The notes beneath the pieces are model-generated. The model made no database searches, was not told where the DNA came from, and was given only the letters and a program-made list of their open reading frames with translations. A stretch of 64,000 bases of DNA from Alphaproteobacteria bacterium (GTDB taxonomy: Bacteria > Pseudomonadota > Alphaproteobacteria > UBA9219), in NCBI GenBank assembly GCA_026225415.1, contig JAMFSS010000010.1:1338-65337 (forward strand), written 5' to 3'. Position 1 is the stretch's first letter, and every line of letters starts with the position of its first letter. Positions 41,904-60,214 of the stretch are shown here, piece after piece. The translations under genes and the position numbers were made by a program.

Positions 41904-42635
41904 ATGATCCTGTACCCTTCCCTCCATATCAAAGATGGCACCGTGGCGCGTTTAACGCGCAGCAGCAGCGATTCGCGCCAGGCCGAAATTCTGCACCCCA
42001 ATCCGGTCGAACGTGCGCTGGCTTTTGAAGCGGAAGGCTTTCCGTGGCTGCATATCGTCGATCTGGACGGCGCCTTTGCCGAAACATCGGTCAACAATGC
42101 GGTCATCGAAAAGATTTTGCAGAATGTCAAAATCCCCGTTCAGCTTTCGGGCGGCATCCATGATCATGCCGCGATCGATCATTGGATGAACAAAGGCGTT
42201 GCGCGCATTGTGTTGACCACGGCGGCGCAGGAAAACCCTTTGCTGGTGCGCGAAGCCGCATCGCGCTATCAGGGTCGCATCGGCGTGAAGATCGATTCCA
42301 TCGGCGGTTATGTCGCGCGCAAGGGATGGACGAATGCTTCGTCGCTTAAGGCGCTTGATCTCGCCTTGCGTGTCGAGGATGCGGGGGCAGCTGCAATTAT
42401 TTATGCCGATATCAATCTGGATGGCGCGCTCAGCGAAGTCGATCTGGAAGCGACCATTGATCTGGCCTTCGCGCTGACCATTCCCGTAATCGCATCGGGC
42501 GGCGTAAATTCCTTGCAAGACCTTGCCGAACTCAAAGCGCATAGCAACTCGGGTATCGAAGGGCTTATCCTTGGCCGCGCCCTTTATAACGGCGCGATCG
42601 ATGCGCAGGAAGCATTGGCACTTGCCAAGTCATAG
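41904..42635 (+). CDS. hisA: ProFAR isomerase HisA (or divergent HisA paralog)
   Basis: MILYPSL, WLHIVDLDGA, PVQLSGGI, PVIASGGV, ILGRALY; the catalytic Asp of PAID reads PSLH here. Confidence 0.82.
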   Translation: MILYPSLHIKDGTVARLTRSSSDSRQAEILHPNPVERALAFEAEGFPWLHIVDLDGAFAETSVNNAVIEKILQNVKIPVQLSGGIHDHAAIDHWMNKGVARIVLTTAAQENPLLVREAASRYQGRIGVKIDSIGGYVARKGWTNASSLKALDLALRVEDAGAAAIIYADINLDGALSEVDLEATIDLAFALTIPVIASGGVNSLQDLAELKAHSNSGIEGLILGRALYNGAIDAQEALALAKS

Positions 42636-43016: not shown

Positions 43017-44678
43017 CTAGCCTTTATTAAGAGCCGCAACCTTGTTAGCTGCGCTTGCCATATCTATCGATGGCCTGCTGCAAGATGCGCAATCGCCGCC
43101 GTTACAGTTTGCGCAAGCGCCCTTGGAAGCTATTTTGAATTTACGTACGATATCTTTTACTTTGTGTTCTGTGTGCTGGACGAAAGACACGATGGGTTTC
43201 GAAGAAGACAGAGCATGAACATAAGATTTAAAGCTTACGACTTCAGGCTTCTTCTCATCCGGCAAATATCTCCGTGGGCTTGGGTCTCTCTTGACCTTCT
43301 CATCATACTGGTCTCGTTCACTTCCTCTATTTTGCACCTTATCTTTTTGGGCAGGCTTTTCTTCAGAGCGCGCCTGATTCTCAGATGGTGGAGCAGGCTT
43401 CGCACCCTCGCCAGCCGTTGGCGGGGCAACAGGGTCAGATGACCCCGTGGGTGGATCGCCGGCAGAATTTACGGGCGGATTATTTGTTGGCTGCACCCCC
43501 GTTACCGAGCCATCGACGCTTGCGCCAATTGGGGCAACAGCTTGTGGCTCTTGCGGATGCATCGCTTGCGGAGCTTCCACCGTTACCGGAGTTGGCGTCG
43601 GTGGCGCGGCATCAACGATTGGCGTCACGACAGGAGCTTCAATACGAATTTCTGTTGGGCGAATCTCTGCCGACTGCGCGACGATCTGCACAGGCGCCAC
43701 AGGGACTTCGTTATTTTGTGGCGCAGCAGCGGCAACGGGTGCAACCGGCGATGCTGCCGCAACAGTTTGAGGCGCAGCGGCCTGAGGCGCTGATGCTTGG
43801 CTCGCAGATATTGATGCAACCACGGATGGGGGTGATGATAGCGGCGATACAGATACAGGCGACACAGATGTTGCCGTCGCGGCTACTGCCGACACGGCGG
43901 CCACCTGCGTGACGTAGTTTTGAGCCGCAACCGCGCTTGCCATCGACGCAACAGAAGCCATTCTGTTTTCAACTGGCATTGTTACAGATGCTCCAAGCGC
44001 TTGGGTTACCACAGTCGCAGCCGCCACAGGAGCGGCAGAAAAACTTTTGTCCTGAGTGGCAGCAACAACGATGGATACAGGCGCAGCGGCCTTAAAATTG
44101 GACACAGAAACATCTTTTGGCGCGAAAGGAAGAATAACTGCGCTCGCCTTGGCACCTTCAACCGCAACGCCCTTGATATCCAGCATAGGCATCGCCGCAA
44201 CCTTGTCGCCGCGCAATGTCACAAGGCGAACAACGCGGCTGCCTTCTTTGCCTTTGGGCTCCATATCCGCAAGCTGATTCATGGTGGCCAAAAGCGTTTG
44301 CTTCAAACCAGTATCATCCTTCATACCGCCCAGCTGTTGAATCACATTTTTGATATCCATTTGCACGTCGCGCGCATTTTCACGGATTTCTTTTGCTTCT
44401 TTGCCGGCCACTTGCGTCGCGCCGATACCGCCAAGGCCGCGCGACAAAGCGCCGACCGATTTCGTCAGGCTGATTAAACCGGTTTGCGCTTCCATCGATT
44501 GGCTGGCGGCGGCCATTGCCTGGTTCAACATGCGCGCAATTTGTCGCAGCATTTCGATTTCCTGCTTGGACAAAGCCGCTTTATCCGCATCCGGCCTGTC
44601 ATGCTTGCCCAGAATTTCGGCGATGAAAACGAAATGCCCATCGTCGCCGGCCATAATACGTTGCGCAGATGCGATCAT
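43017..44678 (-). CDS. Hypothetical low-complexity protein with C-terminal CxxC-x4-CxxC
   Basis: 553-aa ORF: helical N-terminus, long Ala/Pro/Val/Ser region, ends GACANCNGGDCASCS. Confidence 0.65.
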   Translation of the reverse strand: MIASAQRIMAGDDGHFVFIAEILGKHDRPDADKAALSKQEIEMLRQIARMLNQAMAAASQSMEAQTGLISLTKSVGALSRGLGGIGATQVAGKEAKEIRENARDVQMDIKNVIQQLGGMKDDTGLKQTLLATMNQLADMEPKGKEGSRVVRLVTLRGDKVAAMPMLDIKGVAVEGAKASAVILPFAPKDVSVSNFKAAAPVSIVVAATQDKSFSAAPVAAATVVTQALGASVTMPVENRMASVASMASAVAAQNYVTQVAAVSAVAATATSVSPVSVSPLSSPPSVVASISASQASAPQAAAPQTVAAASPVAPVAAAAPQNNEVPVAPVQIVAQSAEIRPTEIRIEAPVVTPIVDAAPPTPTPVTVEAPQAMHPQEPQAVAPIGASVDGSVTGVQPTNNPPVNSAGDPPTGSSDPVAPPTAGEGAKPAPPSENQARSEEKPAQKDKVQNRGSERDQYDEKVKRDPSPRRYLPDEKKPEVVSFKSYVHALSSSKPIVSFVQHTEHKVKDIVRKFKIASKGACANCNGGDCASCSRPSIDMASAANKVAALNKG

Positions 44679-45082
44679 CAGCAGGTTCCTTGAATGCTTG
44701 AGTGAATACTGACGTCACCTTCGACAGGCACGACGACAAGACGCGCCTTGGCGCCGGAGAGTAGCTGTTCAACCAGATCGCCTTCATCTTGAAAGGCAAA
44801 ACGCAAAAGAACAGGTTGGTCGGCGGTGGCATCGGCATCGGCCGCGCAATGCACATCAACGATCAAAAGCCGAACCAGCTGACGAAGCTCGCGTTGGTGG
44901 TTTTTAACTTCAGGCATCGCGGCCATAAAATCGGCTTCGGCATTGCCCAATGTCGTTTCAATACGCAAATCTATGGCTTCGTAGGTATCGCACAAAGCCT
45001 GCACAGCCCGTTGCAAATCGGGTGACAGCGATTGCAGCGTATCCGACATCTCATTTGCAAAAACGCGCTGACTTTCAGCCAC
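44678..45082 (-). CDS. Hypothetical protein
   Basis: 134-aa ORF; TGATG coupling to the next gene. Confidence 0.55.
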   Translation of the reverse strand: MAESQRVFANEMSDTLQSLSPDLQRAVQALCDTYEAIDLRIETTLGNAEADFMAAMPEVKNHQRELRQLVRLLIVDVHCAADADATADQPVLLRFAFQDEGDLVEQLLSGAKARLVVVPVEGDVSIHSSIQGTC

Positions 45083-45191: not shown

Positions 45192-45623
45192 TTATACGCT
45201 TTCGGATATGACGCAATGCCGCGCCCTATCGGGCAAAAGTGTGAAGGTCAAAACCAAAGCCCTGGCCGGCATGCGCCCCCCTGCCCGTTCCGGCCATTCG
45301 ACCAAGGCAATCCCATCGGCGAGCGCATCGTCCCACCCCAGCTCGTCCAGCTCATCCGGCGATTGCAGACGATACAGATCGAAATGCGCCACCGGCACGC
45401 CATTTACCTCATAGGTTTGCAGCAAGGTAAAAGTCGGGCTGGGCACATCGCCCGTCACGCCCATCGCCCGCAACAACGCGCGCGCAAATTCTGTTTTACC
45501 GGCACCCAGATCGCCGACCAACGCCACGCAATCGCCCGCCTGCACATGCGGCGCAATCTGTGCTGCCAGATTTTGCGTGGCCTCTAAATTCGGCAACAGG
45601 AAGGAATGTTCAACCAACGGCAT
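45192..45623 (-). CDS. tsaE: tRNA threonylcarbamoyladenosine biosynthesis ATPase TsaE
   Basis: GDLGAGKT, VPSPTFTL, HFDLYRL, LVEWPE. Confidence 0.96.
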   Translation of the reverse strand: MPLVEHSFLLPNLEATQNLAAQIAPHVQAGDCVALVGDLGAGKTEFARALLRAMGVTGDVPSPTFTLLQTYEVNGVPVAHFDLYRLQSPDELDELGWDDALADGIALVEWPERAGGRMPARALVLTFTLLPDRARHCVISESV

Positions 45624-48120
45624 TGAGCGTGATCACCGCATGAACAGGAATATAGCACGTTACGCGCGTGCCCTTGTCCGCTTCGCTGGCAATCTCGATA
45701 CGGCCACCGTGAAGTTCGACAAAACATTTGACGAGACTTAACCCCAGCCCTGCGCCCGCCTGCCGCGCCTGCGCATTGCTGCGCTCGAACTTGCCGAACA
45801 CGCGGCCCAAATCTTCCGCCGGAATACCGATGCCGTTATCGATAACCGCAAGCGCGATCCATTCATTGCTACGCCGCGCCTCCAACGTCACACGGCCACC
45901 GGCAGGCGTATATTTCACCGCATTGCTGATAAGGTTGAACAACACTTGTTTCATGCGATGCATATCGACAAAAAACGACCCCGCATCCGGCGGGCAATCG
46001 ATGACAATTTCCAGGCTTTGCTGGCGCGCCCATTCTGCCGTCATTTGCTTGGCGGTATTCAACAACGCCGAAACAGGAATGTTTTCCTGTTCCAACGCCA
46101 TGCGTCCGGCCTCAATCGTCGCCAGATCCAACACATCATTAATCAACAGCAACAGCTTCTTGCTCGCATCCATAATGGTGCGGGTATATTCCATCTGCCG
46201 TTCGTTCAGCGTGCCGAAATACTGGTTGGTCAGGATTTCCGAAAAACCCATAATGGTGTTCAACGGTGTACGCAATTGGTACGACACGTTGGCGACAAAT
46301 TCCGACTTCAACCTGTCGGCCGCCGCCAACGCCATATTGCTGGAACGCAGCGCGTCTTCGGCCTTGATCGAATCCGTCACGTCCAGATAGCTGTTCAACA
46401 CCGCGCCATCGGGCAAAGGCACCGCGACATATTGAAGCGTGACGCCGGTATTTAAAACAATGCGCCCCTTGCGCGGATTGCGGTCGAGCGTATAGGAAAT
46501 CGCCTCGCGTTTAAAATCGGCCCATTCGCCTTCAAAGCTTTGCATCGCCTTGGTCTGTTCCAAAATATCGCCGATATGCGGGCTGCCCAACAGATACTCA
46601 ATCGGCAATGACCAGATATGCGCAACCGCAGGGTTGAACAAACCCAATTTGCCATCGGAGCCAAACACCGCGATGCCTTCGGCCAGATTGTCCAATGTTT
46701 CGCGTTGCACCGCGATCAAAGTGTTATAGGAAGATTCCAGCGCCAGCTTGTCGGTCACATCTTCATGCACAAAAATCAACCCGCCCATCGGATGCGGCGA
46801 AACCAGAATACGCAAGGTCGTGCCGTCTGGCAGATGCATCAAATCTTCGCGCGGTTCCAAGAGTGATGTGAACAAAGACAAACGTTCGCGTTTATAACGC
46901 GGGAAGTCGGCCTGTTCCGGCGCGGTGCGGCGTTCGCGCGAATCTTCCAGAATTTCGCCGAATGTCGGCTTGCTGTCCAAAAACACTTCTTCGGCATGCC
47001 ACAGCCGCAGATAGGCGCGGTTGTAAAATTCCAACCGCATATCGGGGCCGTAAATCGCAATCGCGCTGCCCAGATGCTCCAACACTTCGCGTTGCGAGGC
47101 GGCATGGCGTTCAATTTCGGTTTCCTTGTCTTCTTCCGCCGTCACATTAATGGCAAAGCCGAACACGCCTTTGACACCATTGCCGATATCATAAAGCGCT
47201 TCGGTAATTTCCAGCAATTGGCGTTTACCCGCCACAATCACATGGCGGCGCTCCGTTTGCGGCAAATTTGTTTCCAACACTTTGGCCGCCAAAGCGCGCC
47301 CGCTGCCACCCCGCGCTGTTGTCGAGGTCAGTTCTTGCTGATCGCGTATGATATCTTCGGGCTTGGAATCCAAAGCCTTGGCATAGGCCACGTTGCAACG
47401 GTTGATGTTCAGATCATGCCCGCGCAACCAGACGGGAAACGGCAACGCGTCATAAACACTGCGCACCATTTCCAATTTGGTCGCCACTTCGGTCAGTTCG
47501 ATATTCTTGCGTTCGACCAGTTTCAACGCCGCCGGATTCTCGCTAAACCACAACACATCCAGCAACACCACATCGCGCCCCATACGAATGCGCGCGCCGG
47601 TTATCTGAACGGCCTTACCTTCTTTAAGAGTCGTCACCGGCAAAACAAAACTTTCGCCGGTCATTTGCAATTTGCGGAAACAGGCGACAAAGGATTCAGT
47701 TTCGCTGATCGCCGCGACCAGATCCTCAAAATGCGCGACCTTTTCGATGCCCAGCGTTGTCGCGACGCGCACCGCTTCGCGCAGAATGCCTTGCGGCGTG
47801 AAGATGCAATAGGATTCGGGAACGGTGGCCAGCATCGCCTGCGTCCGTTCAGCGATATGGCGAAACTGGCGCAATTGTTTGCTGTCCTGCGTCACACGGC
47901 TGTTTAACGACATGGCCATCCAGGCCAAACCGACGGTAACGCCGGTCATGATCACGACAATCAGCGTCGATGTCTGAATGCCGATATCAAAACTCACGGC
48001 CAGAACGCCTGCCAGAATGACAGCCGCCACAGCCGCAAAGGGCGCATGGGAAGGAGACATAGGAGACATAGAACAAGCCCGGGAATCATGATCAAAAACA
48101 GCCATTCCTGAATAAGCCAT
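45610..48120 (-). CDS. divL: DivL-like PAS-domain pseudo-histidine kinase
   Basis: Multiple PAS domains; H-box reads FVANVSYQLRTPL (Tyr replacing His, the DivL hallmark); HATPase motifs; position upstream of tsaE; start codon uncertain (48120/48069/48060). Confidence 0.85.
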   Translation of the reverse strand: MAYSGMAVFDHDSRACSMSPMSPSHAPFAAVAAVILAGVLAVSFDIGIQTSTLIVVIMTGVTVGLAWMAMSLNSRVTQDSKQLRQFRHIAERTQAMLATVPESYCIFTPQGILREAVRVATTLGIEKVAHFEDLVAAISETESFVACFRKLQMTGESFVLPVTTLKEGKAVQITGARIRMGRDVVLLDVLWFSENPAALKLVERKNIELTEVATKLEMVRSVYDALPFPVWLRGHDLNINRCNVAYAKALDSKPEDIIRDQQELTSTTARGGSGRALAAKVLETNLPQTERRHVIVAGKRQLLEITEALYDIGNGVKGVFGFAINVTAEEDKETEIERHAASQREVLEHLGSAIAIYGPDMRLEFYNRAYLRLWHAEEVFLDSKPTFGEILEDSRERRTAPEQADFPRYKRERLSLFTSLLEPREDLMHLPDGTTLRILVSPHPMGGLIFVHEDVTDKLALESSYNTLIAVQRETLDNLAEGIAVFGSDGKLGLFNPAVAHIWSLPIEYLLGSPHIGDILEQTKAMQSFEGEWADFKREAISYTLDRNPRKGRIVLNTGVTLQYVAVPLPDGAVLNSYLDVTDSIKAEDALRSSNMALAAADRLKSEFVANVSYQLRTPLNTIMGFSEILTNQYFGTLNERQMEYTRTIMDASKKLLLLINDVLDLATIEAGRMALEQENIPVSALLNTAKQMTAEWARQQSLEIVIDCPPDAGSFFVDMHRMKQVLFNLISNAVKYTPAGGRVTLEARRSNEWIALAVIDNGIGIPAEDLGRVFGKFERSNAQARQAGAGLGLSLVKCFVELHGGRIEIASEADKGTRVTCYIPVHAVITLNAVG

Positions 48121-48164: not shown

Positions 48165-49160
48165 CTAGGCGGCTTCCAATTTTTTTTGCGCCGTGGTTAG
48201 GCGCTTCATAAAACGCTCCATAATCGCTTTATCGCCTTCGCTCATGGGGCGTTGCGCTTCGGGCACCGTAATAAGGCTCATATCACCGGCATACAGGGGG
48301 TTGCCCAACGTCACCATACCCGCCTTGCGCAGGCTGCTGCCGGTTTCGACAATATCCATAATGGCATCATAGCCCAGAACGCGGCATGAAGCCTCGACAT
48401 CGCCCGCCTGATATTTGATATCGGCGGGCGTGATGCCACGCCTGGCCAATTCCTGCTGTGCGGTTGCCGTGTAGGATGTCAAAATTTTCTTGCCCTCCAA
48501 ATCGGCAATTGACCGAATTGCTGTCTGGTCTTTGGGCACCGCAAAACACATACGGAAAGCGTTGACCGTAAATTGCTGCCGAATATCCATTTCGACAGGA
48601 TCGCGCCCTTCCAGCAACGCCTCGGCCTGAACTTCGATTAACTTATCGTTGCCCAGAAAACCGCAATGCGCCGCACCCGCTTTTACAAAACTGGGAATAT
48701 CGCGACCACGGCTGACGCGGTATGAAATGGGCTGCATGCCATTTTGGAAATCGATAATCGCTTTCTTTTTCGTATCCAGACGAAAACCGCTTTTACCCAA
48801 AATACTCTCGACCAGATTTTGCGCACGCGTTTCTTTGGGTATGGATACACAGAAATCGCCCATCACCGGCGTGGGCGGATATTGGTCGCGCATGGATATA
48901 CGCCACACATGCATCACCAGATCTTCTCCACAATCGCATTGATCGGCCACGTCCTTGAAAACCAATTGACCCGTTGTGCGGAGGTTTTGCAGAATTTGCG
49001 TGCGGATTTCATCGCGTTTTAAAAACACATCGACATCTGCGCCGGTCATCAACCCGTCAAGGGATTGAACGGCAAGATCGTCCGGCTGATTAACCGCCGC
49101 CCGCAATTTTTCGACCAATAATAGAAGATTTTTATCTTTAATATCGTTACTCATAATCAT
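48165..49160 (-). CDS. hisG: ATP phosphoribosyltransferase (short-form catalytic core) with ~100-aa N-terminal TrpR/YerC-like extension
   Basis: SIPKE..R, RGRDIPSFV..G.AHCGFLGND, ILTSY, GDVEA..LG.DAIMDIVETGSSLRKAGM; no C-terminal ACT domain. Confidence 0.85.
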   Translation of the reverse strand: MIMSNDIKDKNLLLLVEKLRAAVNQPDDLAVQSLDGLMTGADVDVFLKRDEIRTQILQNLRTTGQLVFKDVADQCDCGEDLVMHVWRISMRDQYPPTPVMGDFCVSIPKETRAQNLVESILGKSGFRLDTKKKAIIDFQNGMQPISYRVSRGRDIPSFVKAGAAHCGFLGNDKLIEVQAEALLEGRDPVEMDIRQQFTVNAFRMCFAVPKDQTAIRSIADLEGKKILTSYTATAQQELARRGITPADIKYQAGDVEASCRVLGYDAIMDIVETGSSLRKAGMVTLGNPLYAGDMSLITVPEAQRPMSEGDKAIMERFMKRLTTAQKKLEAA

Positions 49161-49170
49161 TTTCCCAACA

Positions 49171-49213
49171 TGTACTGTAACATCACAGTATTACTGTGAA
49201 GCATGACTGTCAA
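49171..49213 (-). promoter_or_regulatory. hisG promoter overlapped by palindromic operator(s)
   Basis: Minus strand TTGACA-N17-TACTGT; palindromes TACTGT-N6-ACAGTA (49173-49190) and TCACAGTA-T-TACTGTGA (49183-49199). Confidence 0.7.
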
Positions 49214-49255
49214 CCCTTGTGGGGCAAGAAATACTTCCCCCATTCATCCAGACAC

Positions 49256-49291
49256 AAAAATGCCGCGAGGACAGCAAAGCCCTCGCGGCAT
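49256..49291 (-). terminator. Rho-independent terminator of ahcY
   Basis: ATGCCGCGAGG / CCTCGCGGCAT stem followed by a U-run on the minus strand. Confidence 0.8.
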
Positions 49292-50750: not shown

Positions 50751-51572
50751 TCAAGCTTCGACCAGCTTGAGCGTCAGGCATTTGGCACCGCCGCCCGCCT
50801 TCATAAATTCGGATAACCCAATAACCATAGGGGTAAACCCCCTGTTGCGCAGATCATCCTGCAAATCGGTCGACGCGCCATTCAGGAAAACATGGCGGTT
50901 GATATCGACCGCATTACAGCAAAATTGCGTGGCATCATTTTCACCAACCGGAATACGTTTGTCTGCAGGCACATGGGCTTCGATCGCCGCGCGCGATATT
51001 TCATCAAACGCGGCGGGATAGTAAATCACAAACCCATCCTGCAAAGGACACAGGCAGGTATCAAGATGATAAAAACGCGGATCGATTAACGTGAGCGCGA
51101 CAGTTTTACGCCCCAACATTTTTTCCAACAGAGCGGGCGCGGTGGGATCGGAACGGAACCCCTGCCCAACCCACAACAAATCTTGCCCGCGGTCAAACAA
51201 CGCATCGCCCGCCCCTTCAAAGGGAACATCCGATGGCCAATCGAGAATATCAAAATTGTTCGCGGCGAACCAAGCGCGGTCATGCGCTTCTTCGCCCTGA
51301 CGTTGCGTGTTGCGGAAACGGCTGACAATCGCTTTGTTGCCCAAAACCAAACCCGCATTGGCGGTAAAAACCAGATCGGGCAGGCCGGATTGCGGCGGCT
51401 GCAAAACAACTTCACATTGCCTTGCGATAAAATCATGCAAAGTCTGCCATTGGCGTTTGGCATAGGAAAGGTCGGCGGTGCCAATCTGGCCTTCCATCCA
51501 CGGATTGATGACATAATTCACGCCGAAATGATCGGGCGGACACATCAGGATTTTTTGCGTTTTGTCGGTCAT
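50751..51572 (-). CDS. Amidinotransferase/dimethylarginine dimethylaminohydrolase family protein
   Basis: LMCPP..YVINPWM, PDLVFTANAG, FEGAGD, FYHLDTC, KAGGGAKCLTL. Confidence 0.92.
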   Translation of the reverse strand: MTDKTQKILMCPPDHFGVNYVINPWMEGQIGTADLSYAKRQWQTLHDFIARQCEVVLQPPQSGLPDLVFTANAGLVLGNKAIVSRFRNTQRQGEEAHDRAWFAANNFDILDWPSDVPFEGAGDALFDRGQDLLWVGQGFRSDPTAPALLEKMLGRKTVALTLIDPRFYHLDTCLCPLQDGFVIYYPAAFDEISRAAIEAHVPADKRIPVGENDATQFCCNAVDINRHVFLNGASTDLQDDLRNRGFTPMVIGLSEFMKAGGGAKCLTLKLVEA

Positions 51573-51605
51573 GATTTCCAATAGCCGACCAAAGTTACCT
51601 TTTCC

Positions 51606-52196
51606 TTAATCAAAATCCTTTGCCAATTCCAAACGCGTATCGCGCGGCACTACGGCCATGTGCCCATAATTAAAATGGGTTACGGCGATAACCACTTCTT
51701 GCGCCACAACAAATTTCTTTGTCTGTTCCGTCGTAAAGGGAAAATGGATAAATTGCACCGACGAAGCCTTGCCATCGGCCGAGGTATAATCCAGATCATT
51801 TTCGGCCTGCGCCGTTATCACTTCGCCTTCAAAACGCAGCTCGATGGTTTTTTCGACGCCGCCCAAGGTTGACAGCAACGCGGCGCGGCGCGCCACATCT
51901 TCGATTTCAAACATAACGGTCGCGGTCAATTCGCGCCCGTTCGGTATCATCGGGTTATAGGCGCGCAATTCATCGTCCAGCTGTTCATCGCCGCCTTTTT
52001 CAATGCGCAGCATTTCCTGAATCTGCAGCCACATCGTGTCGTAATTTTCAAAATAAAATGTCGCATAAGGCCCGACCGAAACCCTGCGGTTGATTTTCAC
52101 GGCACGCAACGCCGCGCGTTTTTCGGTGCGTATTTTTTCATACGCATCCGGTGGTAAAATATCCTGCGGCGTAATAGTTTTTTTCAAAGCACTCAT
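51606..52196 (-). CDS. DUF3501 family protein
   Basis: RRVSVGP..FEN..QIQEMLRIE..YNPMIP..LTATVMFEI, KASSVQFIHF. Confidence 0.9.
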   Translation of the reverse strand: MSALKKTITPQDILPPDAYEKIRTEKRAALRAVKINRRVSVGPYATFYFENYDTMWLQIQEMLRIEKGGDEQLDDELRAYNPMIPNGRELTATVMFEIEDVARRAALLSTLGGVEKTIELRFEGEVITAQAENDLDYTSADGKASSVQFIHFPFTTEQTKKFVVAQEVVIAVTHFNYGHMAVVPRDTRLELAKDFD

Positions 52197-53584
52197 AGCT
52201 GTTCCCTCAAAATGTCAAAACTCATCGCGAAAATTTCCACGGGGTTAAGCGCACGCGTTTTTTCTGTCGGCGCATTGTCCAACCGTTCGACACCTTGGGC
52301 AATGTGTAAAGCCGCCAAAGGACATTCAGAAGCGATAAAGGCCGGTTGCTGGTTTTCGGCGGCATTCTTGATGACTTCCGCGGTTTTACGCGCCACAGGC
52401 TTGCCGACTTTCAACGCAATATCGAAATTCTCTTTCTTGATGCCCCACGAACCGCCATGCCCCGAACAACGTTCGATAAGGGTGATATCATCCGATTGCG
52501 GCAGTAACCGCAGCATTTCCGCCGCCTTGGCGCCCATATTCTGCGCGCGGGCGTGACATGCCAGATGCAACGCAACAGCACCCGCCAATGGCCGCATGCC
52601 CCCGGCCAAACCCTGTTTCTTGGCGATATCGACAATATATTCGGTTAAATCAAATGTGGATTGCGCCAGCTGCATCACCTGCGCCCGCGCCACATCATTT
52701 TCCGGCACCAAGAGCGGCCATTCCAGTTTCAGCATCAAGGCGCAACTGGGCACAAGCGCGACAACATCATAACCTTGCGCGATATATTCATCCAATTCAC
52801 CGGCAACCTTGCGGGCGTTTTCCACCACCTGCGCGATATTACCTTGTTCCAGTTGCGGCATGCCGCAACAGCCGGGATAGACAACGCGTGTGTCCACGCC
52901 ATTTTTTGCCAACACCGCGCGCGCAATCATACCCATGTCGGGATCATTATAATTCATCGTGCAGGTGGCGTACAAAACCGCTTTGCGTTTGCCATAAGCG
53001 GGCGCCATCTTATTCACTTCGATATCCGCCGCCGCGCGCGCCACAAAAGTTTTCGACGCATATTCCGGCAAGGCCGCATCGCGATGCACATCGGCCACTT
53101 TTTCCAACACGCCGCGTGTAAATTTGTTTTCTGTGCTGGTCGCCCAATTCGCAATCGGCGCCACATATTTCGCAATTTCGCCATTGCGGTCTGTCTTGGT
53201 CAATTCTGCGTCGGCAAAAGAAACTTCGCCCTTTTTCGCTTCCACCGCGCGGTACCGCAACATCAAATGCGGGAAATCGAGATTAAATTCATGCGGCGGC
53301 ACATAAGGGCATTTTGTCATGTAACACATGTCGCACAGCGTACAGGCATCAACGACCGGTTTGAATTCAGCAGATTTCACATCATGCAATTCGCCCGATG
53401 GCGTCGCATCGATCAAATCAAAAAGTTGCGGAAAGGAATCGCATAAATTAAAGCAACGGCGGCAGCCATGGCAAATATCAAACACGCGGCGCAATTCGGC
53501 ATCCAACTTAACTTCATCATAGAAGTCGGGATTTTGCCAATCAACCGCATGGCGTGTGGGGGCTTGCAAACTGCCTTCGCGCAT
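52193..53584 (-). CDS. Fe-S oxidoreductase (GlpC/HdrB-like CCG domains), rubrerythrin-associated
   Basis: CHGCRRCFNLC, CTLCDMCYMTKC, CCGMP, RCSGHGG, SECP. Confidence 0.9.
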   Translation of the reverse strand: MREGSLQAPTRHAVDWQNPDFYDEVKLDAELRRVFDICHGCRRCFNLCDSFPQLFDLIDATPSGELHDVKSAEFKPVVDACTLCDMCYMTKCPYVPPHEFNLDFPHLMLRYRAVEAKKGEVSFADAELTKTDRNGEIAKYVAPIANWATSTENKFTRGVLEKVADVHRDAALPEYASKTFVARAAADIEVNKMAPAYGKRKAVLYATCTMNYNDPDMGMIARAVLAKNGVDTRVVYPGCCGMPQLEQGNIAQVVENARKVAGELDEYIAQGYDVVALVPSCALMLKLEWPLLVPENDVARAQVMQLAQSTFDLTEYIVDIAKKQGLAGGMRPLAGAVALHLACHARAQNMGAKAAEMLRLLPQSDDITLIERCSGHGGSWGIKKENFDIALKVGKPVARKTAEVIKNAAENQQPAFIASECPLAALHIAQGVERLDNAPTEKTRALNPVEIFAMSFDILREQL

Positions 53585-53756: not shown

Positions 53757-54185
53757 TTAAGCAGCCTTCTTCAATTCATCCAACGCCTTCTGGAAACGAC
53801 CGGCATGCGACTTTTCAGCCTTGGCCAGCGTTTCAAACCATTCGGCGATTTCTTCAAAGCCTTCTTCGCGGGCGGAACGCGCCATCGACGGATACATATC
53901 CGTATATTCGTGCGTTTCACCGGCAATCGATGCCGCCAGATTGTCGGAAGTTTTGCCAATCGGCAAACCTGTTGCAGGGTCGCCGGATTCTTCCAGATAT
54001 TCCAAATGGCCATGCGCGTGACCCGTTTCGCCTTCGGCGGTCGAACGGAAAACGGCGGCGGTGTCATTAAACCCTTCGACATCGGCCTTTTGGGCGAAAT
54101 ACAAATAACGGCGGTTGGCCTGACTTTCGCCCGCGAACGCTTCCTTCAGGTTATTTTCGGTTTTGGTGCCTTTGAGTGTGGCCAT
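53757..54185 (-). CDS. Rubrerythrin (short form, no rubredoxin domain)
   Basis: [35 protein letters not shown]. Confidence 0.95.
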
Positions 54186-54227
54186 AGCTCTCTCCTGTCC
54201 TGTGACTATCACGAACGTGATAGGGGT

Positions 54228-54248
54228 AGTTTAGAATAATTCTAAACT
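54228..54248. promoter_or_regulatory. Iron control element (ICE, Irr box) upstream of rubrerythrin
   Basis: AG-TTTAGAA-TAA-TTCTAAA-CT, an exact match to TTTAGAA-N3-TTCTAAA. Confidence 0.9.
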
Positions 54249-54275
54249 AAGTCAAGGGGAAACAAAAAGAGGGAT

Positions 54276-54710
54276 TCAAGCGTTGCTTTGCACGCGCAAG
54301 ACGATATCGACACGCGCCAGCTTCTTGCCCTGCGGCAATTTCGGCAAATGCGACACGCGGATGGATGCGGCGGGGATATCGGTCAATAAACCGGTATCTT
54401 CGTCAAACACATGATGATGCGAGCCGATATTGGTGTCAAAAAACGCCTGACCGCCATCGACCACCACCTGCCGCAACAAACCGGCACCACGAAAATGGTT
54501 CAAGCTGTTGTAAACAGTGGCCAGCGACACTTTTGCCTTCATCCGGGTCAATGAAGCATGAACCTGTTCCGCCGTCACATGCTTGTCGCACCCGTCGAAC
54601 AACAAACCGGCCAAAGCCAAACGTTGTTTGGTCGGGCGCAAACCCGCGCCTTGCAAAAGCGTTTGCAAATTCCCATACTTGCCTGAAGCGGATTTGTTTT
54701 TAGAATTCAT
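54276..54710 (-). CDS. irr: Fur-family iron response regulator Irr
   Basis: GLRPTKQRLAL, HVTAE, SLATVYNSL, FFDTN..HHH, VDIVLRV; adjacent ICE. Confidence 0.9.
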   Translation of the reverse strand: MNSKNKSASGKYGNLQTLLQGAGLRPTKQRLALAGLLFDGCDKHVTAEQVHASLTRMKAKVSLATVYNSLNHFRGAGLLRQVVVDGGQAFFDTNIGSHHHVFDEDTGLLTDIPAASIRVSHLPKLPQGKKLARVDIVLRVQSNA

Positions 54711-57820: not shown

Positions 57821-60214
57821 ATGCCACAAAAGCCTCACAATAATCGCTTCCTGAAAGCAGCCTTCCTCGCACTGGCGACAGCCTGCCTGCCCTTTCAGTC
57901 TATGGCGCAAATCGACAGCGAAAAACTGATCGGCTCAACCTGCGCCACGGCGGGGCAAAACGCCGCCGACTGGGATACATTCGCCGAATGCCCCAGCAAT
58001 GGCGGCACATGGACACGCGGCCCTATTTTTGTCGGCACAACATCCGATAGCTGCGACACCAATCATGGCGGCATGCTTTATTGGACGGGTACGGCTATGC
58101 AATATTGCAATGGCACAGCCTGGGGCACGTTCGGCATCAGCGCTTCCCCCAGCGTCTTCTCCAGCCTGACCGGCGCGACGGCGACCCACAGTTTCGATAA
58201 TGTCGCCTATGCGCAAGTGTGGGGCTGGAGCACGAATTTCACCACGCAAAACGCCTTCACTTTGTCGTCCACAAGTGAAACCACCGGCTCGCTCCTTACC
58301 ATAACCGCCGCCAACACGGCCGCGACGGGCCCGGTCGTGAATGTCAGCACCACCAGCACCGGCGGGGCGGTCGCCGTCAAAGCCGCCGCGACCGGAACCA
58401 ACAACACGGCGGCAGCCGGTTATTTCACGAATAACAACGCCACGGGCTATGGCGTTTTTTCATCAGGCGTATCGCCCAGTTATTTCGGCGGGAATATCAA
58501 CCTCGCCCCGGCGGCCTTTTATGACGTGGGAGGCAATAAATTCCTTAGCCTTGTCGGCGGCGACAGCTCCACGATTAGCATTGGCGCGGGTGCGGCGGGT
58601 TTGGTCAATACCGGCACAGGCGTCACCGCCATTGGCGGCAGTGCTTTGTTTGTTAATGGAGCCAATAACAATACCGGACTGGGCTTTGAGGCGGCGCCGA
58701 CTAATACCACGGGAACCCCCCTCACCGCGGCGGGCGAGGCGGCTCTTAACAGTACAACGGCCGGCCCCAATGACGGGCTTGGTTATAATGCTGGCTATAA
58801 CATCTCTACCGGCACCGGCAATGTCGCTTTCGGCAATGGCACCATAGCCACGGGCTCGGCGCAGGTGACGGGCAATAATAACTCGGCCATCGGCTATCTG
58901 GCGGGGGCGGTTCTTGCCGGCGCGGCAGCCAGCAACACGGCGATAGGCTATGAAGCACTCAAGGCAACCACGACGGGCAGCCAAAGCACCGCCGCGGGGT
59001 CCAACGCCCTGTTGGCTGCGACCGGCGCGAATGACGCCTTCGGCTATAATGCGGGCAAGGGCATTACCACCGGCACCAGCAATGTCGCGCTGGGCGAAAT
59101 CGCAATGGTCGGCGCATTGACCGGGGCCTATAACACGGCAGTCGGCTATGACGCGTTAAGCCCCACTGCCAGCACAGCCACCTCCAACACAGCCGTGGGG
59201 GCACAGGCGGGGTTCAAGATTTCTTCGGGCAGCTACAATACGGCTTTCGGGGAAAACACCCTTGCGGGCGAAACCACGGGAACCAGCAACACGGCTTTCG
59301 GCCAAAATACGCTTAGCGCCTCAACCGGAACATCGAATGAAAGTTTCGGCACCAACACCCTTTCCTCCGCAGTCACCAGCACTAATAATCTTGCTTTCGG
59401 CAATGCGACTCTTAACACGTTCGCGGCGGCAGGGGCCAATACCCATGTCGCCGTCGGCGCGGGCGCGCTTAACGCGGTGACGAGCGGATCAGGCCATACC
59501 GCCATCGGTTATCAGGCCGGTTCGGCAGGCTCAACCCCATTGACCGGCGGCGCGGCCTGCACCTTCATCGGCTTTCAGACGCAAACAAACGCCGCCTCTT
59601 ATACCAATGCCACCGCCATCGGCGCCGGGGCCATTCTGACGGCCTCGAATGCGATCGTGCTGGGCAATTCGTCGATTTCGGCCATTTACGCCAAGGTCAC
59701 TTCCATCACCGGCATTTCCGACCGGCGCCGGAAAAAAGATATTGCAGATTTGCCTGCCGATCTCGGCCTTGAATTTATCGGTAAATTAAAACCGGTTTCC
59801 TATCATTTCAATAATGGCGACGAAACCCAGCGTTACGGTTTTATCGCGCAGGATATGGAACAGGCCCTGCCGCCGCCGTTGCAAAATATTGTCGAAACCG
59901 CGCAACCGGAAAAGGGTTTGGCGTTGTTGTCGCGCGACACGACCAAAGACCGTTTTTATCACGTCGCCTATGGCGAATTGACCGCGCCCATCGTCAAAGC
60001 CATTCAGGAACAGCAAAGCCAGATTAAAAATGACCGCGCCTATATGGCGCAAGTGAATACGCAAAACCCATCGCGCCAGTTACAGTATCTCGGCGACAGC
60101 CTGGACAATACCGGCACCATCCAATCCGCCCTTCTCGCAGGCGGCGCTTTCGCCAGCCTGTGTCTGGCCTTCTTTCTGACGCGACGCAAGAAACAGGGGC
60201 CGCCGCATGAATAA
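57821..60214 (+). CDS. Secreted fibre/adhesin-like protein with Peptidase_S74 chaperone and C-terminal TM anchor (copy 1)
   Basis: Signal peptide; Cys-paired N-module; NTAxGxxAL repeats; ISDRRRKKDI..LKPVSY..GFIAQD..VAYGEL..VKAIQEQ; LLAGGAFASLCLAFFL-TRRKK. Confidence 0.85.
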   Translation: MPQKPHNNRFLKAAFLALATACLPFQSMAQIDSEKLIGSTCATAGQNAADWDTFAECPSNGGTWTRGPIFVGTTSDSCDTNHGGMLYWTGTAMQYCNGTAWGTFGISASPSVFSSLTGATATHSFDNVAYAQVWGWSTNFTTQNAFTLSSTSETTGSLLTITAANTAATGPVVNVSTTSTGGAVAVKAAATGTNNTAAAGYFTNNNATGYGVFSSGVSPSYFGGNINLAPAAFYDVGGNKFLSLVGGDSSTISIGAGAAGLVNTGTGVTAIGGSALFVNGANNNTGLGFEAAPTNTTGTPLTAAGEAALNSTTAGPNDGLGYNAGYNISTGTGNVAFGNGTIATGSAQVTGNNNSAIGYLAGAVLAGAAASNTAIGYEALKATTTGSQSTAAGSNALLAATGANDAFGYNAGKGITTGTSNVALGEIAMVGALTGAYNTAVGYDALSPTASTATSNTAVGAQAGFKISSGSYNTAFGENTLAGETTGTSNTAFGQNTLSASTGTSNESFGTNTLSSAVTSTNNLAFGNATLNTFAAAGANTHVAVGAGALNAVTSGSGHTAIGYQAGSAGSTPLTGGAACTFIGFQTQTNAASYTNATAIGAGAILTASNAIVLGNSSISAIYAKVTSITGISDRRRKKDIADLPADLGLEFIGKLKPVSYHFNNGDETQRYGFIAQDMEQALPPPLQNIVETAQPEKGLALLSRDTTKDRFYHVAYGELTAPIVKAIQEQQSQIKNDRAYMAQVNTQNPSRQLQYLGDSLDNTGTIQSALLAGGAFASLCLAFFLTRRKKQGPPHE

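Follow-up and report, generated by a model that had tools for sequence, protein, structure and literature searches.

Fused gene and its domains

The stretch of DNA analyzed here (the window, 64 kb of contig JAMFSS010000010.1) belongs to an alphaproteobacterial genome, G000, assembled in 11 contigs (2.02 Mb in total) with a completeness rating of 100%. The reverse strand of the window carries a gene in which a divergent domain of the HisR (YerC/TrpR) repressor family is joined to the catalytic core of HisG, the ATP phosphoribosyltransferase (ATP-PRT). The presence of these two known families on one chain is a new architecture, and no report of a HisR/TrpR–HisG fusion or of an N-terminally extended HisG was found in the literature searched, which did not cover the supplements of PMC9413887. 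The gene and its control region include the following features:

48165..49160, reverse strand: open reading frame (ORF) of the fused gene, 331 amino acids (aa)
48870..49160, reverse strand: N-terminal HisR/TrpR-like domain, residues 1-97 (hhalign and fold matches)
48873..48890, reverse strand: linker RDQYPP, residues 91-96 (alignments A1 and A2)
48168..48863, reverse strand: HisG catalytic core of short-form type with a C-terminal helix, residues 100-331 (Pfam, NCBIfam)
48330..48356, reverse strand: HisG signature loop 269-DIVETGSSL-277, pattern D-x-V-x-(S/T)-G-x-(S/T)-L (alignments)
49176..49195, reverse strand: predicted 20-bp HisR-type operator AGTAATACTGTGATGTTACA, one mismatch to TGTAnTAnnnnnnTnTTACA, overlapping the -10 region
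49185..49213, reverse strand: promoter-like TTGACA (49208-49213), 17-nt spacer and TACTGT (49185-49190), read from the sequence

An earlier interpretation made from the letters of the window (the sequence-only reading) had described a short-form HisG core behind about 100 extra residues. The searches recovered the same arrangement, with the core at residues ~100-331, an N-terminal extension of ~97 residues and no HisG_C domain found in the protein by Pfam. The protein likely starts in fact at a second in-frame ATG at 49154, located 8 nt downstream of GGGAAA, from which the database copy P0001 also starts; its length would then be the 329 aa of P0001. The extension is evidently translated and not an artefact of a start placed too far upstream, since it is conserved in every full-length relative (alignments A1 and A2, the latter with 15 rows consisting of 14 full-length relatives and the window protein). 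Within the fused family the linker has the consensus RD(Q/E)YPP, and its residues Y94 and P95 are nearly invariant in both alignments. The AlphaFold (AF2) model of the full-length protein had a predicted local distance difference test score (pLDDT) of 90.3 and a predicted template modelling score (pTM) of 0.84.

Homology of the N-terminal domain

When modelled alone, the N-terminal domain had a pLDDT of 85.7. Both this and the full-length model include five helices, at residues 4-23, 27-37, 40-62, 68-74 and 79-93, the last two being equivalent to the helix-turn-helix (HTH). YerC is the histidine-responsive repressor HisR (Ashniev et al. 2022, PMC9413887); according to the same source, structure 3g1c is a HisR, and the DNA binding of Ruminococcus gnavus HisR is stimulated by histidine in vitro.

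A comparison of the extension with 14 stand-alone YerC/HisR proteins of related genomes by hhalign gave a probability of 96.9% and an E-value of 1.4e-10 over 77 columns. LDGLMTGAD was paired with L..CTPKE and GQLVFKDVA..G with GKLSYREIHAETG, which is the register in which the sequence-only reading had aligned the extension by eye with the Trp repressor. The A2 profile weakly matched free-standing ORFs of ~100 aa in 14 related genomes, G000 included (E 1e-5 to 8e-4), and the two of these that were scanned both belong to PF01371 (E 1.2e-23 in G000 and 3.6e-23 in G023). The extension has in A2 the consensus FLxGLxTxxEIxxLxxRxxVRxxIxxxLxxxGxxSxxxVAxxxGCSExLVxRVWRAxRDEYPP with R49 invariant, and one distant relative, P0014, is named 'YerC' in IMG. 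A search of the ESM Atlas with residues 1-100 gave no usable match.

Also the fold pointed to this family. When the domain was aligned with VIA-align against 48,161 PDB representatives, Escherichia coli TrpR (6ejw_A; Z 8.0, 88 aligned residues) ranked first and the TrpR-like/HisR protein of Eubacterium eligens (3g1c_A; Z 7.0, 83 aligned) second. Among the best 50 rows these two alone started from the first helix (model residues 1 and 4), one of the others beginning at residue 20 and the rest at 36 or later, so that TrpR and HisR were the top two matches of the whole domain. Because Z-scores of 7-8 are modest for a helical domain, the homology, as proposed in the sequence-only reading, leans mainly on the profile comparison, with which the fold result agrees.

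HisG core and the fused family

Pfam HisG (PF01634) matched residues 151-321 with 85.6 bits (E 4.7e-24; cut-off 25.5), and the NCBIfam equivalog TIGR00070 passed narrowly at residues 107-285 with 83.8 bits against a cut-off of 75.75. In a sequence search of the PDB (E up to 1), 19 of the 21 distinct matched sequences were ATP-PRTs, and every match began at query residue 93 or later. Foldseek aligned the full-length model with the catalytic core of Campylobacter jejuni HisG, 5ubh_A, at E 3.6e-18 (TMt 0.86).

The signature loop 269-DIVETGSSL-277, which has a presumed role in the binding of phosphoribosyl pyrophosphate (PRPP), has D269, V271 and G274 nearly invariant in A2, and D267, V269, G272 and L275 (numbering of P0001) are common to the fused family and canonical HisG. 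Residues R112, G170, D172 and E176 are invariant in the fused family (A2). The cores of 14 fused proteins were compared with those of 113 ordinary HisG proteins from the profile search, fragments and proteins outside 195-320 aa being excluded. The same majority residue was kept in the fused family in 24 of the 31 columns with a conservation of at least 75% in canonical HisG, the signature loop among them; the seven differing columns include one with a canonical Asp replaced by Gln or His (here H165). This pattern of conservation suggests that the fused protein may have retained PRPP-dependent chemistry.

A word-seeded search found four relatives and the protein itself among 2474 candidates, with 44-53% identity and all with the extension. 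The exhaustive profile search of 1.84 billion representatives produced 1258 matches at E up to 0.001, with a clear score break. Ten full-length fused proteins (P0001, P0003 and P0006-P0013; 208-596 bits) matched from the N-terminal part of the profile on, and P0014 (161 bits, in two stretches) and two fragments matched as well. The best ordinary HisG reached 118 bits and covered only profile positions from ~95 onward, and canonical long forms scored only ~90-102 bits against the A2 profile. Altogether the fused family comprises ~13 clusters at 50% identity (130-596 bits). The distant relatives are all singletons from metagenomes and, except for P0014, carry the source name ATP phosphoribosyltransferase. 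The related-locus search with A1 detected one genome locus (L007) and nine metagenome loci, of which one (L024) was a true relative and the other eight ordinary HisG with 23-30% identity.

A FastTree analysis of the core alignment (127 rows, 227 columns) united all 14 fused proteins in one clade, with Shimodaira–Hasegawa-like support of 100. The clade is placed inside a set of 54 rows, starred in the tree, which are mostly short forms (27 short, 10 mid-length and 3 long). As this is a quick tree of sequences preselected by similarity, it shows a single origin of the fusion and leaves the donor aside.

Promoter and operator

The promoter-like TTGACA-17-TACTGT was not called by the automatic promoter scan, because its weak -10 matches only at 3/6 positions. 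The proteobacterial HisR motif TGTAnTArnnnnyTnTTACA (PMC9413887) was scanned as TGTAnTAnnnnnnTnTTACA, and the site upstream of the fused gene was the sole such site in the window, against 0.11 expected; 10 of 100 shuffled sequences gave at least one. It lies exactly within 49165-49215, the region that the sequence-only reading had put forward for binding.

A single operator match alone is weak evidence, and the comparative evidence is stronger. The operator was kept in all four orthologous upstream regions, without mismatches in L010 and L024 and with one mismatch in L007/L008, and in all four it is located ~30 nt before the start codon, after TTGAC or TTGAT. The motif also precedes canonical hisG or hisR-hisG in eight of the ten canonical loci scanned, and was not found in L011 and L012. 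Across the whole of G000, two further sites with at most one mismatch were detected, one intragenic and one on an ORF start. With two mismatches three more intergenic sites appeared, beside an HTH_3 protein, an M23 peptidase and unnamed ORFs, none of them histidine-related, and none of the 66 intergenic sites with up to three mismatches was beside a recognisable histidine gene. With no other convincing intergenic site in the genome, the fused gene looks like the only HisR target left there.

Histidine genes of the genome

The fused gene was the only HisG found in G000. HisG_C had no match anywhere in the genome (the control was positive in 7 of 14 reference genomes). Neither was HisZ found, the sole HisS/HisZ-like gene being a true histidyl-tRNA synthetase (HisRS; 381 bits with TIGR00442, and 173.6 bits with the HisZ model TIGR00443, below 271.65). 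Thus neither the hisZ nor the second hisG for which the sequence-only reading had suggested looking was present.

The searches for hisD, phosphoribosyl-AMP cyclohydrolase (PRA-CH, hisI), imidazoleglycerol-phosphate dehydratase (IGPD, hisB) and phosphoribosyl-ATP pyrophosphohydrolase (PRA-PH, hisE) were positive in 14/14 control genomes. In G000 there was no match to hisD, PRA-CH or IGPD, and the sole match to PRA-PH, in a 275-aa frame, was below the threshold (20.9 bits against 21.3). PF00977 (HisA/HisF) found only one strong gene, with 214 bits, and as this is HisA-like, G000 has no HisF. Because hisD, hisB, hisI and hisF are all missing, the fused protein cannot feed histidine synthesis in this genome. 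A stand-alone HisR is encoded on contig C4 (PF01371, E 1.2e-23).

The HisA-like gene is located in the window itself:

41904-42635, forward strand: HisA-like gene (PF00977, 214 bits; TIGR00007, 204 bits, below the cut-off of 229)

It is kept genus-wide at 64-78% identity, even in genomes without any other his gene, and in sister families its orthologue (52-59% identity) adjoins hisF. The lone gene may serve another isomerase role, for example a TrpF-like one. It was rejected as a partner of the fused gene, its orthologues being present also in the HisG-less genomes G004 and G005 and in prototrophs.

Distribution of the fused gene

Among the 71 genomes of the order the fused gene was detected in three, which all belong to the genus of the window (G000, G008 and G016), and no further carrier was found among 400 other genomes sampled from the class. 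Within the genus (21 genomes), three genomes have the fused gene, 13 a canonical long-form hisG and five no HisG, and the two forms occurred together in none (0/21). The histidine genes of the three groups were:

Canonical hisG, 13 genomes: hisD in 11/13, HisR (PF01371) in 12/13
No HisG, 5 genomes: hisD in 0/5, HisR in 1/5 (G018, 79% complete)
Fused gene, 3 genomes: hisD in 0/3, HisR in 2/3 (G000, G008)

Since the genomes of the genus are interrelated, these counts are descriptive and not a statistical test. The absence of hisD from all three carriers, together with that of IGPD, PRA-CH and HisF from G000, does not support the proposal of the sequence-only reading that the fusion may be a third regulatory type of HisG in so far as it implied control of histidine synthesis. 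It also means that the annotation 'ATP phosphoribosyltransferase' does not imply histidine prototrophy in such genomes.

In G020, hisR and hisG adjoin on the same strand, their matches being ~26 nt apart. Stand-alone YerC-like genes next to hisG, mentioned in the sequence-only reading, were seen in sister genomes, and PMC9413887 likewise places hisR and hisG adjacent to each other at the head of proteobacterial his operons. The HisA encoded in the his operons found within the genus (long-form hisG-hisD..., preceded by a HisR operator; e.g. L021, G023:C10:3000-9000) is only 28-36% identical to the conserved HisA-like gene. The presence of these operons in 13 of the 21 genomes suggests repeated acquisition or loss. 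In G023 an ORF between hisR and hisG is presumably an IS200-type transposase. In the assembly of G005 (3.2 Mb, 510 contigs), ahcY is represented by as many as three copies or fragments (61-87% identity). The assembly is therefore probably a mixture of strains, and its status as a genome without the fused gene calls for caution.

Surroundings of the fused gene and rates of divergence

All three carriers have the fused gene flanked by ahcY on one side and, on the other, by a PAS histidine-kinase gene with tsaE behind it. In the window the surrounding features are:

49260..49291, reverse strand: intrinsic terminator of the upstream ahcY, 13-bp stem and T-run (terminator scan)
45610-48120, reverse strand: PAS/PAS_7 histidine kinase, 836 aa, downstream of the fused gene
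45192-45623, reverse strand: tsaE, downstream of the kinase gene

The terminator separates ahcY from the fused gene's own promoter. The gap between the fused gene and the kinase gene is 44 nt and has no predicted terminator, so that the kinase gene and tsaE may be read through from the HisR-controlled promoter. In G002, G003 and G005, which do not have the fused gene, ahcY directly abuts the kinase gene. No remnants of the fused gene were found between these two genes in five non-carriers (tblastn E at least 0.66), including G012 and G004 with intervening DNA.

Between the carriers the fused protein is 46-50% identical, the N-domain 30-44% and the core 53-56%, and the flanking proteins are 87-90% (AhcY) and 73-75% (kinase) identical. 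Canonical HisG proteins within the genus and family are 53-88% identical (median 65%). The divergence rate of the fused core is thus similar to that of the fastest ordinary HisG, while the N-domain is diverging much more quickly. The reading frame of the fused gene is open in all three carrier genomes.

Probable control and proposed role of the fused protein

The recognition helix of the stand-alone HisR, GVSVTTIGRVARFL, was nearly invariant across the genus by eye in the printed alignment, and the net charge was positive in 13 of the 14 stand-alone proteins. The corresponding helix is CGEDLVMHVWRIS in the window protein, with the family form GCSE(E/x)LVARVW, and the acidic residues noted there in the sequence-only reading are present as described (78-GEDLVMH-84). 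Where HisR has VSVTTIGRVA the fused protein has CGEDLVMHVW, which furthermore varies among the orthologues, and the N-domain has a net charge of -5 in the window protein and a negative one in 9 of the 15 family members. With a drifting helix unlike that of HisR on one side and a canonical operator on the other, the site is probably read by free HisR. The equivalents of TrpR T44, R54 and R84, which we assume to line the co-repressor pocket, are largely retained in the fused family (T in 13/15, R49 in 15/15 and R in 12/15), and this would be in keeping with a domain still able to dimerise and/or to bind a small ligand, plausibly histidine.

The explanation that we prefer, with a rough probability of one half, is that the gene encodes a HisR-repressed orphan ATP-PRT-like protein, in which the HisR-derived domain serves as a sensor or dimerisation module and which makes no contribution to histidine synthesis in this genome. 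In the protein, a divergent domain of the HisR (YerC/TrpR) family is joined through RD(Q/E)YPP to a core of short-form type with its signature residues. The gene's own promoter appears to be overlapped by a canonical proteobacterial HisR operator and stand-alone HisR is encoded in G000, so transcription would most likely be shut off by HisR with histidine and switched on when histidine is scarce. The fused domain itself most likely no longer reads the operator, and would more probably act on the core as a ligand-sensing and/or dimerising module in the place of HisZ or of the C-terminal domain of HisG. The organism being a histidine auxotroph, the product would be either an ATP-PRT-like orphan enzyme under the control of histidine or a regulator that binds PRPP/ATP. 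Of the two alternatives given in the sequence-only reading, the reuse of a repressor fold as a regulatory domain thus fits better, while a self-repressing enzyme is possible but less likely. A more specific proposal, which we consider quite unlikely, would make the orphan HisG of auxotrophs an effector of histidine starvation and not a biosynthetic enzyme. It would be kept under histidine control, in the present case by the HisR operator together with the built-in HisR-like sensor, and could act by forming phosphoribosyl-ATP (PR-ATP), either as a signal or to restrain ATP and PRPP, or else by docking to HisRS or HisR.

Several observations weigh against this explanation or parts of it. The Pfam search with residues 1-100 matched no family at E up to 10, and the genome search with PF01371 (Trp_repressor) misses the fused locus and matches only the stand-alone gene on contig C4. 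Foldseek, which the sequence-only reading had named as a check of the TrpR fold, gave E. coli TrpR in all of its top 12 matches (prob 0.89-0.99), at weak E-values of at least 0.12. The window protein has H84 instead of the family Arg and D76/G78 instead of G/S, and the pocket or the HTH of its N-domain may accordingly be degenerate. HisR (PF01371) was not found in the carrier G016 (82% complete), and there the fused protein might itself be the reader of the operator. The genomic background of the fused gene is visible in three genomes of one genus only, and the ~10 more distant family members from metagenome contigs may sit in histidine prototrophs. Furthermore, an orphan enzyme whose PR-ATP product lacks a known consumer is metabolically odd.

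The fused protein could also repress its own gene, if its N-domain still bound the 20-bp operator as a TrpR-like dimer and had either histidine or a HisG ligand for a co-repressor. The operator is located on the gene's own promoter in 4/4 loci, the domain has a TrpR-type HTH fold, 12/15 proteins retain the Arg that corresponds to TrpR R84, and G016 has the fusion with no stand-alone HisR detected; autoregulation of HisR is also common according to PMC9413887. We nevertheless regard self-repression as unlikely, since the helix is variable and unlike that of HisR while the operator has stayed canonical, the N-domain has fallen to 30-44% identity against 73-90% for the flanking genes, its charge (-5, and negative in 9/15) is opposite to that of stand-alone HisR (positive in 13/14), and both G000 and G008 possess a normal HisR. 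A transcription factor resembling PurR, in which the HisG core would sense PRPP, ATP, AMP or histidine and the N-domain bind targets other than HisR boxes, is improbable. The fused protein does combine an HTH domain with a phosphoribosyltransferase (PRT) or periplasmic-binding-protein-like fold, Bacillus subtilis PurR, which senses PRPP through a PRT fold, is a precedent, and G000 has no pathway for an enzymatic product. However, the signature columns are conserved as in active HisG (24/31), which would be needless for a pure sensor, the HTH is acidic and variable, and no other operator family was found.

A true role of the protein in the first step of histidine biosynthesis, under a third type of feedback in which histidine binds the HisR-like domain, would require transient retention of the gene or a missed pathway. 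The protein is the sole HisG of G000, with neither HisZ nor HisG_C, it excludes canonical hisG in the genus (0/21 genomes with both) and shares the HisR operator of the canonical his operons, and the adjacent same-strand hisR and hisG of G020 are the obvious state before fusion. Still, such a role is distinctly improbable: hisD, IGPD, PRA-CH and HisF are absent from the 100%-complete G000 and hisD from 3/3 fusion genomes, and as the gene has remained intact in three genomes while the flanking genes diverged to 73-90% identity, its retention is not transient. A non-functional relic in decay would account for the fast divergence of the N-domain (30-44% identity) and for the loss of the family consensus residues at 76, 78 and 84 from the window copy. 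We consider this very improbable, as the frame is open in 3/3 genomes and there are 14 full-length relatives, the invariant catalytic columns as well as the promoter and the operator are conserved, and the identity of the core (53-56%) is at the low end of the canonical HisG range (53-88%).

Comparison with known systems

Two types of ATP-PRT regulation are known, one through HisZ and the other through a C-terminal ACT-like domain. Short-form ATP-PRTs (HisG_S; Thermotoga maritima 1usy, Psychrobacter arcticus 5m8h) likewise consist of the catalytic core without a C-terminal regulatory domain, whereas the fusion has an extra N-terminal HisR-like domain, and G000 lacks HisZ and the downstream pathway. 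Long-form ATP-PRTs (HisG_L with the ACT-like HisG_C; the form of the sister genomes, e.g. L021, 290 aa) resemble the fusion in combining, on a single polypeptide, the core with a presumptive regulatory domain, and in being under the same HisR operator. The domain of the fusion is, however, N-terminal and of an all-helical HTH fold, while that of HisG_L is C-terminal, ACT-like and unrelated.

HisR (YerC/YecD) is homologous to the N-domain, which has the same fold as TrpR and 3g1c, and the promoter of the fused gene carries the proteobacterial HisR motif. In contrast to HisR, a free protein of ~100 aa with a nearly invariant basic HTH, the fused domain is linked to an enzyme, is acidic, has a different, variable recognition helix and ~4 extra residues in helix C, and remains below the detection of PF01371. 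The hisR-hisG gene pairs (PMC9413887 and G020) include the same two modules in the same order, but in the fusion a conserved linker unites them in a single reading frame, and the other genes of the his operon are lacking. As an analogy only, also B. subtilis PurR joins an HTH-type domain to a PRT fold; there a winged helix is combined with a type I PRT that has lost catalysis, while the fusion combines a TrpR-like domain with a type IV PRT keeping the HisG signature columns.

A HisG core with a captured repressor fold of its own pathway would be a third ATP-PRT architecture and would clearly exemplify how an amino-acid sensor that binds DNA can be put to new use on an enzyme. It is more surprising that the gene is maintained under histidine-type transcriptional control in genomes unable to make histidine, which raises the testable question of a role for HisG outside biosynthesis, such as signalling, control of nucleotides or PRPP, or partnership with HisRS or HisR.

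Other genes of the window

Two ORFs on the reverse strand, of 553 aa (43017-44678) and 134 aa (44678-45082), had no Pfam family, the former showing a faint match to a HEXXH metallohydrolase (TIGR04338, E 2.7e-4). At 50751-53584, also on the reverse strand, an arginine dihydrolase/DDAH-like gene (NF052232, 356 bits, below the cut-off), DUF3501 and a CCG-domain protein form a row of genes, after which come rubrerythrin and Fur (53757-54710). A forward-strand gene at 57821-60214 encodes a 797-aa protein with a Peptidase_S74 (endosialidase chaperone) domain, which is typical of phage tail fibres and autotransporter-like proteins.

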